This document shows, in pieces, positions 9,995-17,966 of a stretch of 37,362 bases of DNA (its first letter is position 1; every line of letters begins with the position of its first letter). Origin of the DNA: a virus. A program made the translations under genes and the position numbers. The stretch lies in IMG/VR virus record IMGVR_UViG_3300045988_106398, one strand, 5' to 3'. A model generated the notes under the pieces. That model was not told where the DNA came from and ran no database searches. It saw nothing but the letters and a program-made list of their open reading frames with translations.

Positions 9995-10807
9995 CTACGC
10001 CTTCGCTGTTACTGTTGCTACTCCTGCTTTCAATGCTTTCCCGCTTTTATCACATTCTATAATCATAATCTGATCTCCTGTAGTGGCAGCGAGAGATTCA
10101 AGACCATTCCATGCAGTTTCCGTAATGATTTCACCATACCCCGGATATAGCAAAGGAGCTTTTCCTGTCTTGTAAAAATACTTATTTTCCCCTGTTTTTA
10201 CTGGATTGACATATACATTTGTTTTTCCAGATGCATCCGCTCCTGCAACAGATACCACCGTTAATGGAGCAAGTGCCGAACCACCTTCCGGCATAGTATC
10301 TGGTTTTACCGGATTTTTTGCAAGATCTACAAGCGGTCCCATTCCTTCAAGTGACAAGCTGTATGTCATAGCATCATCATACGGTGCTTCTAACGGATAG
10401 TCCGTGATTACCGCAAGTCCTCCAAACATCCCTTTTTTCGTTTTTCCATTGATAACTTTTAAACAAATCGGATCACTATTCTCAAACGCTTGTGATAGTA
10501 ATCCATGTGATTCATCTCCTGGTACATAAAGACCATCATTGTCAATGCTCCACTCTTTCATCCCAGCAATTTTAGATTTCCAGCCTCCTAATGTATCTTT
10601 TGATGTGATCTCGATACTATCAGCACTTCTGTTAATAGTAAGCCCCTGCTGCCCGCTGATCGCAAGCAGTTTCGTTCCATCCGCATTGTAAATTGCAAGC
10701 AGTATATCTTTTCCAGCTACTGCCTTTGCAGATGAACTTGTAAAATCACAATACGCATTGTCATCATAAGCAAATAATTGTAATCTGTTAAATTTCTTAT
10801 TTTTCAT
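9995..10807 (-). CDS. Major tail protein with N-terminal LQLFA propeptide-like motif
   Basis: Start reassigned to MKNKKFNRLQLFAYDD, preceded by RBS TAGGAGG. Position upstream of the chaperones fits a major tail protein. Confidence 0.75.
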   Translation of the reverse strand: MKNKKFNRLQLFAYDDNAYCDFTSSSAKAVAGKDILLAIYNADGTKLLAISGQQGLTINRSADSIEITSKDTLGGWKSKIAGMKEWSIDNDGLYVPGDESHGLLSQAFENSDPICLKVINGKTKKGMFGGLAVITDYPLEAPYDDAMTYSLSLEGMGPLVDLAKNPVKPDTMPEGGSALAPLTVVSVAGADASGKTNVYVNPVKTGENKYFYKTGKAPLLYPGYGEIITETAWNGLESLAATTGDQIMIIECDKSGKALKAGVATVTAKA

Positions 10808-13898: not shown

Positions 13899-14186
13899 TC
13901 ATAAAATTTTTACATATTCGGGGAATTCCTCTGAAATCATGGAAATCCCGATAAAAAAAGAGTCTATCAAAACTCGCGATTTTTCTGATAAACTCCTATA
14001 AACAATTTTAGATGCTCCCGGTCTTAGACAATATTCAATTTTATCATTAGTTAAACTCAGTATGGATTTAACCAATGACTGAAAAAGGGCAGTCACTCCT
14101 GCACACACAATGTCACTTCCACTTGCTGCATATCCCGCATGACCGTCTACTGTAATTTCTGTACTTGTTACTTTTACTGCAATCAA
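13899..14186 (-). CDS. prp: Prp-like cysteine protease (ribosomal-processing cysteine protease family, DUF464)
   Basis: The motif VDGHAGYAASGSDIVCAGVTALFQS matches the His/Cys dyad region of Prp. Start reassigned to the TTG at 14186, preceded by GGGAGGTGG. Confidence 0.75.
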   Translation of the reverse strand: MIAVKVTSTEITVDGHAGYAASGSDIVCAGVTALFQSLVKSILSLTNDKIEYCLRPGASKIVYRSLSEKSRVLIDSFFIGISMISEEFPEYVKIL

Positions 14187-14253
14187 TCGGCACCACCTCC
14201 CTAAAAATAAGTATAAAAATACCACAGATCTTTTCGACCTGTGGCATCTGCAC

Positions 14254-14529
14254 TTATATATTTTTCAACCAATCTGCTACTTCCTCAACGTCAATCGCTC
14301 CTGTGTGGTTCATATACACCATCTCATCAGACAATAAAACTACCGCTGGCAATTTGTCTATCTGATATTTGTCTGCCACAAATGATTCGTCCTGCACGTT
14401 TACACGCTGTATTTTATCAATCCCGACTTTTTCCTCTAAAGGTTCAATAAACTGCTTTTCATAAAATCTACAGGGCGGACACCACGGAGCATGAAAAAAT
14501 AATAGTTTTTTCATAACTTTTCTCGTCAT
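14254..14529 (-). CDS. Thioredoxin-like protein (WCPPC active site)
   Basis: LLFFHAPWCPPCR ... LPAVVLL follows the thioredoxin-fold pattern. The start could instead be the second Met (MKKLLFF). Confidence 0.8.
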   Translation of the reverse strand: MTRKVMKKLLFFHAPWCPPCRFYEKQFIEPLEEKVGIDKIQRVNVQDESFVADKYQIDKLPAVVLLSDEMVYMNHTGAIDVEEVADWLKNI

Positions 14530-14721
14530 CTTCCTTACTTAAATACTATCTCACACAATCAGAATTTTTGTCTTTTTTCCCATTCCATATATTCTCTAGC
14601 TTCACTTAATGTCATTATCATCACTCCCAGTATAATCCAGTGGTACTATTACCATAATATTCCTCTGCTTCCTTTTGGTAAAACCGCTCCTATCTTTCTA
14701 ATTCAAACTACTGTTTCAACT

Positions 14722-14907
14722 CTAATCTGTAATATTTTTAATGTTATTTTGAGCAATATGCTTTTTATATGTCACTCCATTGTTACATATGGTTCCTTTG
14801 GTTTTAGGAGTATGCAATATTTCCTCAGGTATTCCTTTCGGATACGCATCACATACCATATTTTTTTTACAATTATCGCAATCCAAACAGTACGGTATTC
14901 TAATCAT
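14722..14907 (-). CDS. Small Cys-rich protein translationally coupled to the MuF-fusion gene (possible immunity/partner)
   Basis: The ATG overlaps the MuF TGA (ATGA), preceded by RBS AAAGGTGGA. CLDCDNC..(5)..C cluster. No family recognised. Confidence 0.55.
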   Translation of the reverse strand: MIRIPYCLDCDNCKKNMVCDAYPKGIPEEILHTPKTKGTICNNGVTYKKHIAQNNIKNITD

Positions 14908-16454
14908 TTCTTTTTCCACCTTTCTATGTAAATTTCAACCAACCTTCTTGCTTTATCCGGCACTTCTTCACCGTTTCTTATTTTTACAAAAGCCTCTGCT
15001 ATCGTTTCAAATCCATCCTTTGCATCATCAGAATATCCTGAAACTCCTGGAACATATTCCTTTTCAACAGTATTTAAAAAAGTCTCAAATTCCTCTGCGT
15101 CTTCAATATGTTGTCCTGTCATTACGTGTGCCATTTCGTGAATAATATGGTCTGTTATACTTTTTCCTGAAAAATAACCATATGCATAGGCTCTGGCAAC
15201 TATTTCATCAAACCCTGTAAAATCAAATCCACTATTTAAAACAAATATTGATTCATGTTTTCCATTATTATTCGCATATCTACATAGATAAGGAATATCC
15301 AAACGCGAAGTTCCCAAATCTTCTACCAACACCCATTTTAAATTCAACTCATATTCATTTTCTATTATATTAATACCCTTTTGCATATTTTCAATCATAT
15401 TAGGAGTAATACCAGTAGCCCGTCTAAGTTGTTCTGGAATTATTATTTTCTTTATCATACCATAGTCAACATTTTTTACAACCTTTAATCTATCAGATAT
15501 TTTCTTTCCTTCACCATTTCCATGACGTTTCTCATAATCTTCAACAAACTTCTCCCTATCCGTAACACTTGGTGTTGCGGTACAATGGCACCACGGGTGC
15601 ATAGGTGGAAAGTTTATTCCCGGCTTTCTTTCACCCCATTTGAAACGTTTCTCATGCAAATCATCACAAATATCCGACCAACCGGAACGCCTTGCTTTAT
15701 AGTGCTGAATACGGAACACATATTCCTCTGTGTCCTGCTCAAATGCCACTGCTCTTGCTTCATTTGATATAAATGTACCTTCTGTGTAAATCAGCCGATA
15801 TGCGTCATTTCTGGACACTTTCTCAAATCTCTGTCTTAACTTCGAAACAAGTTTGCTATAACTGTCACCACGGGCAAATCCCGCAGCAATATCCCTTCCC
15901 AAATATCGTGCCAGTTTCTGAATATTTCCCCATATTCGTTCACTGAAATCTTTTCCGTCATACCACTTTGCATTTACAATTTTTCGTATGATTTCCGAAT
16001 TTTCCGAGTAAAAGTTCTTGCCGTACCCCATTGTTTCTGCTACCTGATTAGCATTGCGTACAGCCTGTCTTACAAGATGCTCCCTGACCGTCTTAATATC
16101 GACTGCACCGATTTCCAACTGCTGCATAAGTATTGACATCTGTAATCCTTCAAGACGGTTTAGTTTATATATACTTTCCCGTATAGGAAGCATATCCGCA
16201 TACTCAGGATACAGTTGAGCAAAGTCCTGCATTCTTTTGATAAGTCGTTCCCTATCCGCATCGTCCAAGTTCTGCATCAACTTTCTGTACTCGATAACCT
16301 TGTCCTCACCATATATGGAATAATATGCTGCTATTTCTTTTTCTAACTTTCTGTATTCTGCACTATAAAAGGACGAGAGTTTTTTCTTTAATTTCTTCTC
16401 GTCCTTTTCCAATTCCTGATTCAGTTGTTTCTGTCTCTTTTCCCAGTAGTTCAT
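14904..16454 (-). CDS. Minor head protein (SPP1 gp7 / Mu F family) fused to a C-terminal HExxH metallopeptidase-like domain
   Basis: The MuF motif NFPPMHPWCHCT lies mid-protein. The C-terminal ~190 aa contain HIIHEMAHVM and a downstream ETIAEAF. Follows the portal gene. Confidence 0.8.
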   Translation of the reverse strand: MNYWEKRQKQLNQELEKDEKKLKKKLSSFYSAEYRKLEKEIAAYYSIYGEDKVIEYRKLMQNLDDADRERLIKRMQDFAQLYPEYADMLPIRESIYKLNRLEGLQMSILMQQLEIGAVDIKTVREHLVRQAVRNANQVAETMGYGKNFYSENSEIIRKIVNAKWYDGKDFSERIWGNIQKLARYLGRDIAAGFARGDSYSKLVSKLRQRFEKVSRNDAYRLIYTEGTFISNEARAVAFEQDTEEYVFRIQHYKARRSGWSDICDDLHEKRFKWGERKPGINFPPMHPWCHCTATPSVTDREKFVEDYEKRHGNGEGKKISDRLKVVKNVDYGMIKKIIIPEQLRRATGITPNMIENMQKGINIIENEYELNLKWVLVEDLGTSRLDIPYLCRYANNNGKHESIFVLNSGFDFTGFDEIVARAYAYGYFSGKSITDHIIHEMAHVMTGQHIEDAEEFETFLNTVEKEYVPGVSGYSDDAKDGFETIAEAFVKIRNGEEVPDKARRLVEIYIERWKKK

Positions 16455-17966
16455 CTACATTTCCCCATTCAAAATCGAACGTGCCTCTTCTCTGCTAATT
16501 CCTATTGCAGTTGAAATAAGTCTAATCGCCTGTCCTTCTGTCAAACTTCCTGCACTGTATTGCGACATAATAGCAATTAAACTTTGTGTCTGTGCTACGT
16601 TCAGTGCTTTCCCTTGTATTTCAGTCACCCCCTCTGTAATAGAAACTATATCCTCACTCTCTTCATCATCTCTGCCTGTCGGATAGTCTGTGTTATACCC
16701 TAGCAAATCCTGCTCGGCATCTATCTTTTCTATTTCCCCTTTCACATCTTCTACTGTTGAAAGTACCTTCAGTTGGGTTTCTTTACTTGTAATGCCTGCA
16801 AGATTTCCCACTATCTGTGATTCTTCCAACAAGTTGGCCGGAAAATTCGGTGTGAAAACATATTTTAATTTTACCCATGAATCCTTTGGAACTTTTGACC
16901 TAGGGTGGCTAAACAATACCTTGTACCGACGATTCATGCCTGACGTGAACTTTCTCTCCTTTGTCTTTTCCAAGTTACTCATAGCCTGCAGTTTATACTT
17001 CAATGAAATTCCTGAACTTGCACCAAAATTTTCATCAGAAATATTTGCCACCATTGATAATTGAAAAATCAATCTCTCTAATCTGTTAAGAAGATTTTCC
17101 TGTGTACCGTCACCGCTCGGCTTGTCCATAAATTCTACGATAATCTTATCCACTTCATCTCCCGAAAAGTTTACAACACGTTTATCGCGGATAAATTCAA
17201 GGTCGCCATCTTTTAATTCAGCACCAAGCACCTTCATATATGCATCTGCAAAATAATCTACATCATTCGCTTTTTCACTGATTGCATTATTATAGGCATT
17301 AATCATCGTCAATACTGGTTCAAATATACTCTGCCGTTCTGCATTCTCCACAAACTCTGTCGCAGGCACTCCCTCAAAATAATGCGATTCCCACTCACTT
17401 GTCCAAATATACCCTCCTGAAACTTGAAAATACCTAACCTCTGTCCCGTTAGATATACTTCCTCTCTCTGTTTTATTGTAATCTGTATAGTACCTTACAA
17501 AAAACTGTGGTCTTTCAATAATAGATTCATCAAATATCATAAATGCTTCTGTCGGATCAAGATAAGTGGTACACAGTTCTGCCTCTTCATCTGCATAATA
17601 CATCTCGTACCCTTTTCCATAAATATCACATATCTTGGACAACTCTGCGTTGTTGTCATCTTGGTCATTGTATTGATTAAGAAATTCCACATACTCTAAC
17701 AAAGATTTATCTTCTGACGTAATTCTAATCGGATTTCCCAAAAAGAACCCGTTCATTGTATCAACTATATATTTTGCAAAATTTGCTACAATACGATTAT
17801 CTGGTTTATAATCCGGTTTCTTTTTTCTATGCAAAATTTCATAATCACTTGTATAAGCGTCCTGTAATGGCTTGTATCTTTTGCTGACCATTTTCTTATG
17901 CCTGTCTACAAATTCAGCCAGTAATTCCAATGTAATCTCTGTACCTGCTGGTAATATAAACATCAA
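16455..17966 (-). CDS. Portal protein (SPP1 gp6-like)
   Basis: 503 aa directly after terL. The NRIVANFAKYIVDTMNGFFLGNPI motif is typical of SPP1-type portals. Confidence 0.85.
   Translation of the reverse strand: MMFILPAGTEITLELLAEFVDRHKKMVSKRYKPLQDAYTSDYEILHRKKKPDYKPDNRIVANFAKYIVDTMNGFFLGNPIRITSEDKSLLEYVEFLNQYNDQDDNNAELSKICDIYGKGYEMYYADEEAELCTTYLDPTEAFMIFDESIIERPQFFVRYYTDYNKTERGSISNGTEVRYFQVSGGYIWTSEWESHYFEGVPATEFVENAERQSIFEPVLTMINAYNNAISEKANDVDYFADAYMKVLGAELKDGDLEFIRDKRVVNFSGDEVDKIIVEFMDKPSGDGTQENLLNRLERLIFQLSMVANISDENFGASSGISLKYKLQAMSNLEKTKERKFTSGMNRRYKVLFSHPRSKVPKDSWVKLKYVFTPNFPANLLEESQIVGNLAGITSKETQLKVLSTVEDVKGEIEKIDAEQDLLGYNTDYPTGRDDEESEDIVSITEGVTEIQGKALNVAQTQSLIAIMSQYSAGSLTEGQAIRLISTAIGISREEARSILNGEM

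Follow-up and report, generated by a model that had tools for sequence, protein, structure and literature searches.

We analysed a viral DNA stretch of 37,362 nucleotides (nt), the IMG/VR record IMGVR_UViG_3300045988_106398 (hereafter the window), and focused on a minus-strand gene for a MuF head protein with a zincin-like C-terminal extension and on the small gene directly downstream of it. With moderate confidence, we read the two genes as a locus for a polymorphic MuF effector in a temperate siphophage of gut Clostridia, which would supply a packaged and co-injected metallopeptidase together with an inhibitor or immunity partner. MuF-effector fusions and their predicted delivery by the capsid have been described (Zhang et al. 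2012, PMC3482391; Iyer et al. 2017, PMC5512222; Jamet et al. 2017, PMC5576092), so the architecture itself is already known. The new elements are the definition of the zincin clade, the exact borders of the cassette and a widespread family of predicted zinc-binding partner proteins.

A MuF head protein with a C-terminal zincin-like domain

The MuF-zincin fusion gene lies at positions 14904..16454 (stop codon included) and encodes 516 amino acids (aa); the features of the locus described below are all on the same, minus strand. A protein identical to it was found in a public metagenome assembly (P0001). Profile searches confirmed the predicted nature of residues 1 to ~323 as a MuF/SPP1-gp7 minor head protein, and the corresponding capsid-targeting module (residues 1 to 323) is encoded at 15486..16454. 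Pfam Phage_Mu_F (PF04233) matched residues 188 to 293 (E = 4.9e-14, 53.5 bits against a cut-off of 29.6), TIGR01641 (phageSPP1_gp7) matched with E = 1.7e-17 (63.8 bits against a cut-off of 39.65), and PHROG 115 ("minor head protein") covered residues 1 to 321 (3e-72). A reading of the letters made earlier without database searches (the sequence-only reading) had recognised the MuF signature but placed it at residues 285 to 296; the motif NFPPMHPWCHCT is indeed present, at residues 281 to 292.

The structure of the C-terminal domain (residues 324 to 516, ~190 aa; 14907..15485) was predicted by AlphaFold2 (AF2) from 51 homologues, with a predicted local distance difference test score (pLDDT) of 93.3 and a predicted template modelling score of 0.89. 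In domain numbering, the model showed helices at residues 28 to 44, 110 to 122 and 158 to 170 and strands at residues 51 to 55, 66 to 73 and 76 to 84. Its core thus consists of an N-terminal helix and a three-stranded sheet ahead of the HExxH helix (110 to 122), followed by a glutamate-bearing helix (158 to 170, with E160 and E164). This order of elements is that of the metallopeptidase (MPTase) core of polyvalent proteins (PMC5512222). The HEMAH motif, with the predicted zinc-binding and catalytic residues H439, E440 and H443, is encoded at 15126..15140, and the predicted third zinc ligand, E487 of the AEAF motif, at 14994..14996. All four residues were invariant in three homologue alignments, and N407, S472, Y474 and D476 were invariant too. 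In the full-length protein, the two motifs appear as HIIHEMAHVMTGQH at residues 436 to 449 and as ETIAEAF at residues 483 to 489. The zincin-like arrangement noticed from the letters, an HExxH motif with a downstream acidic ETIAEAF, is therefore borne out by the location of both motifs, the topology of the model, the invariant residues and a profile-profile alignment. In that alignment (hhalign), the window zincin family matched viral zincins that terminate MuF proteins at 98.2%, with an E value of 4e-14 over 160 columns. Seven viral proteins of this MuF-terminal type match Pfam ATLF, with E values down to 1e-27. By these profile comparisons, the window zincin is placed within a large superfamily of lethal-factor-like peptidases (Pfam ATLF) that end MuF proteins.

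Among the curated families, the window protein gave a sub-threshold match to WLM only (20 bits against 26) and no ATLF score in Pfam, and nothing significant was found for the domain in NCBIfam or PHROGs. Sequence searches of the Protein Data Bank (PDB) with the domain alone and with the domain profile returned no match. An assignment to WLM/SprT, prompted by weak Pfam matches to both, was considered and rejected, as the score was below threshold in all 12 members that match WLM, and the third histidine (H449 of HExxHx5H) is not conserved, the consensus being TGQx. Because this third histidine is not conserved, the predicted fold class of the domain is that of a gluzincin-type rather than a WLM/SprT-type peptidase, as judged from the alignments and the model. 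In the BFVD collection of predicted viral structures, the best matches outside the family were phage zincins annotated as matrixin, lethal factor, SprT-like, M34 and IrrE.

The small gene is coupled to the zincin and is under constraint

A small gene of 61 codons, whose product is a predicted zinc-binding partner, was identified at 14722..14907 from the open reading frame (ORF) list, homologue alignments, substitution rates and an AF2 model. Its start overlaps the stop of the fusion gene in an ATGA at 14904..14907 (stop TGA at 14906..14904, ATG at 14907..14905). A Shine-Dalgarno sequence, AGGTGG, is located 8 nt upstream of the start at 14916..14921, within the codons of R512 and W513. It is thus embedded in the conserved ERWKK end of the zincin, in which R189 and W190 (domain numbering) are invariant or nearly so. 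The product has 61 aa when read from the ATG (MIRIPYCLDCDNCKKNMVCDAYPKGIPEEILH...) and 65 aa when read from an upstream GTG, and it contains the motif CLDCDNC...C. Both the overlap and the small Cys-rich ORF had been pointed out from the letters, and the coordinates agree.

Zincin-type domains were encoded at 32 genome loci in Lachnospiraceae and Oscillospiraceae/Ruminococcaceae, and a homologue of the small gene was directly downstream in all 32. Its start overlaps the preceding stop by 1 to 16 nt, or by ~50 nt in four of these loci, and overlap or abutment is the rule among relatives (median −4 to +4 nt). The four cysteine residues were invariant among the small proteins of the genome loci, and the pairwise ratio of nonsynonymous to synonymous substitution rates (dN/dS) was 0.05 to 0.25. 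The complete linkage, the invariant cysteines and the low dN/dS together show that the small ORF is not a chance frame, and the lack of conservation that the sequence-only reading had named as a refutation is not seen. The AF2 model of the small protein had pLDDT values above 90 over residues 11 to 50.

In five genomes that were searched whole, the small gene occurred at the MuF-zincin locus only. An unbiased sample was then considered, drawn via the MuF N-terminal domain and hence independent of the small protein. Here the small gene followed both C-terminal zincins (2/2) and only one of 43 non-zincin MuF proteins (Fisher p = 0.003), and an internal zincin in the same sample (L194) was not accompanied by it. 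Counting the 32 genome loci and these two, every C-terminal zincin (34/34) is followed by the small gene.

The gene was also found outside intact pairs. Intact copies stand beside truncated remnants of the zincin (L024, L025, L028 and L030), and a copy is retained in L033 to L039. In a sister phage, MuF is followed by an unrelated domain, a 72-aa gene and then a copy of the small gene that is 79% identical. Extra copies of the gene or its domain occur within one ORF or in neighbouring genes (L006 at 7154 and 7462, L060:5708-6055, L158:3603-4031, and also L024).

Six bacterial contigs (L024, L025, L028, L030, L031 and L032) contain the last 40 to 115 residues of a zincin and the small gene with no MuF upstream, and the small gene appears to be disrupted in L031 and L032. 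Judging from their gene content, these contigs are decayed prophage remnants or orphan modules.

The zincin and the small gene form an exchangeable cassette

The border between the two parts of the fusion protein lies at residues 305 to 334 (15453..15542), where an EDYEKRHG...(A/S)xR(L/F) motif is followed by a disordered linker; the AF2 pLDDT was below 50 over residues 1 to 11 of the zincin domain. A search with residues 1 to 320 yielded proteins of sister phages that are 94 to 98% identical over the N-terminal module, differ in total length and carry four different C-terminal domains. The sister MuF sequences run parallel to EDYEKRHG-x-(A/S)xR(L/F) (residues ~305 to 324) and are unrelated afterwards. 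Among 73 homologues with the exact MuF motif, we found at least 13 unrelated C-terminal clusters, including ADP-ribosyltransferases (ARTs), PBECR nucleases, DUF6883, a JAB-like domain and a glutamine deamidase, and none of the 73 was without an extension.

The same border was observed at the nucleotide level. In blastn comparisons, the window was 89 to 97% identical to three sister phages from the terminase to MuF codon ~312 to 323. The identity ended at window position 15519 (L037), 15484 (L040) or 15497 (L041) and came back at 14517, where the thioredoxin gene starts. In the variable cassette (~14530..15484), the GC content is 0.31 to 0.33, compared to 0.40 in the MuF N-terminal module; the value is 0.32 for the zincin domain and 0.33 for the non-coding tail of the cassette (192 nt, 14530..14721), which ends close to where sister identity resumes. 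The cassette alone showed 70 to 72% nucleotide identity to prophages of Maccoyibacter intestinihominis and Roseburia hominis, with the flanks unmatched, and the same zincin domain occurs behind two MuF-type N-terminal modules, PF04233 and PF06152. GenBank phage records gave no nucleotide or protein match to the cassette.

The breakpoint and the sharing of the cassette with otherwise unrelated Lachnospiraceae prophages support the earlier expectation that domains are swapped at a fixed MuF junction and that the small gene is swapped with them. The MuF polymorphic-toxin architecture proposed in the sequence-only reading is likewise upheld by the fixed DNA breakpoint and by the number of unrelated C-terminal families on related N-terminal domains. 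The opposite possibility, that the extension is an ordinary part of all MuF proteins, is not the case, as the sister phages replace the C-terminal domain.

Other features were seen at the junction of related proteins. A Prp-cleavage-like motif, (L/M)xLQ(F/L)FA, is present at or after the junction in P0199 (residue 337), P0223 (residue 520) and P0294 (residue 516), and the sister MuF proteins of L181, L183 and L188 also have such a junction motif. In the MuF ORF of L194, an LQFFA site stands between the internal zincin and a further domain. These internal sites suggest that Prp could release the C-terminal cargo in those MuF proteins; the window MuF-zincin has no Prp-cleavage-like site. Intein- or Hint-like insertions at the junction were also noted, in P0008 (874 aa, Pfam Intein_splicing) and, after residue ~325, in the MuF ORFs of L182, L189 and L198 ("HIVLTSRGWVRAKNLIKGDKV...").

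The small protein belongs to a widespread viral family

Using a degenerate DNA motif for C-x-AFP-x-GIP, we found at least 117 viral contigs, and 109 of the 117 listed encode a match to the small-protein profile. Among 94 members, C7, C10 and C19 were invariant and H32 was conserved in at least 90%, whereas the fourth cysteine, C41, is peculiar to the Clostridial subfamily. The conserved loop reads AYPKGIP in the window protein (residues 21 to 27). These conserved residues point to a CCCH zinc-binding site as a feature of the family. No member of the broad family matched Pfam, and no NCBIfam match and no PDB relative (by sequence or profile) was found for the small protein, to which PHROG 33375, given there with no function, matched weakly. 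A weak match to HPIP_like in 5 of 30 small proteins was absent in the broad family and was treated as chance. The statement from the sequence-only reading that the small ORF resembles no known head protein understated the matter, as relatives of the partner are widespread among phages.

The genes upstream of these family members were compared. Among the listed matches, the upstream gene nearly always encodes a large MuF-bearing protein (50 with PF04233 and 9 with PF06152 of 89), and the last upstream domain is a zincin in ~60 of 92, a JAB-like domain in ~11, an ART in ~5 and another domain in the rest. A narrow zincin hidden Markov model had found only 9 of the 117 loci, and a partner unrelated to zincins was considered on that basis; this idea was dropped when alignment of the upstream ORFs showed most of them to be divergent zincins. 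The same start/stop overlap was seen in every class of upstream domain. The small-protein tree was poorly resolved, although several well-supported sister pairs span zincin and non-zincin contexts. Such pairs look as if the small gene had been kept while the domain upstream of it was exchanged, a state seen directly in the sister phage with the 72-aa gene. When small genes that follow zincins were compared with those that follow other domains, dN/dS was saturated.

One viral protein of 991 aa (L141:1946-4918) contains the small domain N-terminal to an ATLF-like zincin, NUDIX and DUF2213. It seems from its domain content to be a capsid-internal polyvalent protein without MuF. As a Rosetta-stone fusion, it would tie the small domain and the zincin functionally, in an arrangement that resembles a pro-domain.

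This breadth raises the question of whether the small zinc protein serves MuF-fused effectors in general, as a chaperone, a packaging adaptor (compare type III secretion chaperones) or a metal donor. Such a role would explain why the family is coupled to MuF fusions that end in zincin, JAB-like, ART, P0195-like and Zeta-like domains, why its CxxC...C-x-AFPxGIP...H core is invariant whatever the upstream domain, and why the small domain is fused N-terminally to other proteins (L121 and L141). However, the small protein accompanies C-terminal zincins without exception but only about 1 of 44 other MuF proteins in samples that were not chosen via the small protein. In addition, sister phages in which the same MuF module carries other cargo (L040 to L043) lack it, as do short MuF proteins and most types of cargo, and the non-zincin cases look like domain replacement upstream of a retained gene. 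We therefore regard a generic accessory role as unlikely.

Proposed function of the pair

In the effector reading that we favour, the MuF module (residues 1 to ~323) would position the protein, in a few copies, at the portal within the capsid; we infer its packaging and ejection from SPP1 gp7 and from the MuF-toxin literature. The zincin (residues 324 to 516) and the downstream 61-aa gene would have been acquired together as a mobile low-GC cassette. Translational coupling presumably matches the synthesis of the small protein to that of the protease, which the small protein would bind as a factor for latency or immunity, much as a pro-domain would if supplied in trans. The peptidase would thereby stay inactive where it is produced, and cells with the small gene could be protected. 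When the phage infects a cell, the MuF-protease would leave the capsid along with the DNA and cut a host protein in the cytoplasm. A neutralising role is preferred over that of a mere cofactor because copies of the small gene persist without an intact zincin, are multiplied in tandem and move with the cassette.

More tentatively, and with clearly less confidence than in the effector locus as a whole, we suggest that the 61-aa family of CCCH mini-proteins, widespread and not recognised before, is dedicated to capsid-packaged zincin effectors, for which it would provide latency or immunity in trans. If true, phage-injected metallopeptidases would have their first defined inhibitor, or "pro-domain in trans". 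Since the small gene survives both replacement of the toxin domain and prophage decay, it may also act alone as a shield against phages that inject such proteases.

Several observations weigh against the effector reading or its immunity component. About 35% of the listed loci found by the motif have JAB-like, ART or other domains directly upstream, and well-supported sister small proteins sit behind different domain classes. The AFPxGIP loop does not vary between these contexts, as would be expected of a conserved function or target more than of a surface fitted to one toxin. The small gene also lies inside the late operon, and true immunity needs expression in lysogens. Foldseek searches of the PDB gave no significant analogue for the model of either the zincin or the small protein. 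Furthermore, among 137 representative clusters, every full-length one tested had a PF04233 or PF06152 N-terminus, and the zincin domain was not seen in other polymorphic-toxin delivery families, such sharing being an expected hallmark. In the survey of Jamet et al., 75% of MuF toxin domains were shared with other delivery families, so that sharing is typical but not obligatory (PMC5576092). Finally, related zincins can be internal and followed by a toxin domain (P0268) or a Prp site (L194), which fits a processing role.

According to this last explanation, the zincin would be a releasing peptidase that cuts the MuF fusion or internal head proteins at assembly or ejection, with the small protein as its regulator or cofactor. 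Processing as well as effector roles have been proposed for MPTases, and autoproteolytic processing specifically for those of capsid-packaged polyvalent proteins (PMC5512222). The internal zincins stand between MuF and a glutamine deamidase in P0268 and between MuF and an LQFFA site with an extra domain in L194. In the viral sample, a terminal zincin is joined to ART, PARP or Zeta domains in many upstream proteins, and L141 joins the small domain and a zincin with NUDIX and DUF2213 in one polyprotein. However, the window protein has nothing beyond the zincin to release, and the domain is dispensable, since sister phages with near-identical heads carry unrelated domains in its place. The persistence of intact small genes without a functional zincin would also be unexpected for a pure cofactor. 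We regard a processing peptidase, like a generic accessory role of the small protein, as an unlikely account and retain the reading as an injected effector.

Phage context and neighbouring genes

On the minus strand, the genes follow in the order small terminase (Pfam Terminase_2), a 425-aa ORF in the large-terminase position, a 503-aa gene in the portal position, the MuF-zincin gene, the small ORF, the 192-nt gap, thioredoxin, a Prp-type cysteine protease, scaffold and major capsid protein. The portal-position gene (16455..17966) is directly upstream of the MuF gene, and its counterpart in sister phages is SPP1_portal. The position of the MuF gene right after it, with the terminase further upstream, fits a packaging and head module. 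The window also encodes an integrase, a Cro/C1-type repressor and an amidase endolysin with choline-binding repeats, and the element is accordingly a temperate siphophage or prophage. Relatives of the window domain are located inside bacterial chromosomes, and the nearest virus record to the window has no MuF-zincin gene.

The Prp-type cysteine protease is encoded at 13899..14225 (Pfam, 2.8e-19), and the scaffold (13778) and capsid (13171) proteins have N-terminal L27-like leaders ending in LQLFA. A third structural protein near 10783 has an L27-like LQLFA leader as well. These leaders, together with Prp, imply a Prp-type maturation of the head and possibly also of the tail, as predicted from the sequences. 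It is highly improbable that the zincin is itself the capsid maturation protease of the phage, as suggested by a match to PHROG 595 ("head maturation protease"; residues 1 to 331 only), by a weak BFVD fold match to a mycobacteriophage protein annotated "capsid maturation protease" and, by comparison, by actinophage annotations reading "capsid maturation protease and MuF-like fusion", because that role is already filled by the phage's own Prp and the LQLFA leaders on scaffold and capsid, and unrelated domains replace the zincin in sister phages with the same capsid genes.

The thioredoxin gene (14254..14529), between the MuF cassette and Prp, is kept in all sister phages (L033 to L043) whatever the cargo, and by this distribution it appears to be part of the head module and not of the cassette. 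A protein of ~100 aa with an HExxH motif is encoded between thioredoxin and Prp in L040 (5012-5323) and L041 (5055-5366), just upstream of thioredoxin in L042 (5421-5720), and also at L017:5669-5998. The L040 protein showed a weak match to Pfam Peptidase_M78/IrrE-like, and the window has no such gene. Elsewhere in the window, a 513-aa protein with a C-terminal T5orf172/MUG113 (GIY-YIG-like) domain is encoded at 34325..35866 and adjoins the integrase.

Comparison with known systems

The locus closely resembles the MuF polymorphic toxins (PMC5576092), with an N-terminal MuF domain, a place in the head module of a temperate phage, a variable C-terminal enzyme and a fixed junction. Metallopeptidases account for 20% of the 191 MuF toxins in that survey, and small downstream ORFs were present in 89%; the window likewise has a small ORF (<150 aa) immediately downstream, and the toxin group is abundant in gut Firmicutes. 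In contrast, for the window protein the zincin clade is recognised by none of Pfam, NCBIfam and PHROGs, and only MuF-type N-termini were found for it. The characterised MuF toxins are the (p)ppApp synthetase Apk2 and the ART Bxa, in which adjacent small proteins block the active site (PMC11699363). Unlike the predicted enzyme here, neither is a metallopeptidase. Furthermore, whereas a typical immunity protein is dedicated to one toxin, the partner in the window comes from a widespread family that is found behind several domain types.

The MPTases of polyvalent proteins (PMC5512222) share the same core of helix, sheet, HExxH and glutamate, and they are linked to MuF, ART and other effectors in packaged proteins. 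However, the window zincin is the single terminal domain of a 516-aa protein and not a module of a giant protein. The text of PMC5512222 does not contain the terms "zinc ribbon", "Zn-ribbon", "ZnR" or "cysteine", and it seems not to describe a small zinc-binding partner. The Tox-ALF toxins (PMC3482391) also have a lethal-factor-like HExxH zincin as their C-terminal module, and relatives of the window domain match Pfam ATLF. Those toxins, however, are listed as delivered by PVC or type II secretion and have Imm-SuFu immunity, as opposed to the ~60-aa, probably zinc-binding partner in the window. Phage T4 Alt (PMC5512222) provides another parallel, being a head-packaged enzyme that is delivered with the DNA and acts early on host proteins, as proposed here for the window protein. 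It differs in being an ADP-ribosyltransferase of a virulent phage, with another capsid-targeting signal and no coupled small partner.

The proposed action of the small protein also invites comparison with peptidase latency. The cysteine-switch pro-peptide of matrixins and the PepSY/FTP pro-peptides of M4 peptidases are latency pro-domains that silence zincins until they are removed. Like such domains, the small protein occurs in free-standing and fused forms, namely the two-gene form and the L141 fusion. However, no sequence or fold similarity was detected, and the four conserved ligands suggest a zinc site of structural type more than a single switch cysteine.

MuF toxins are abundant in gut prophages, and two of them, Apk2 and Bxa, have been characterised, neither of which is a peptidase. 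The locus described here offers a compact example of a different kind, with precise domain borders, defined predicted catalytic residues and "isogenic" sister phages that carry other cargo. It also introduces a candidate neutralising partner family that is present in more than 100 viral contigs and is matched by no Pfam or NCBIfam model. The locus thus makes two questions testable in laboratory strains: what a phage-injected protease would cleave in the newly infected cell, and how the producing cell would silence that protease.

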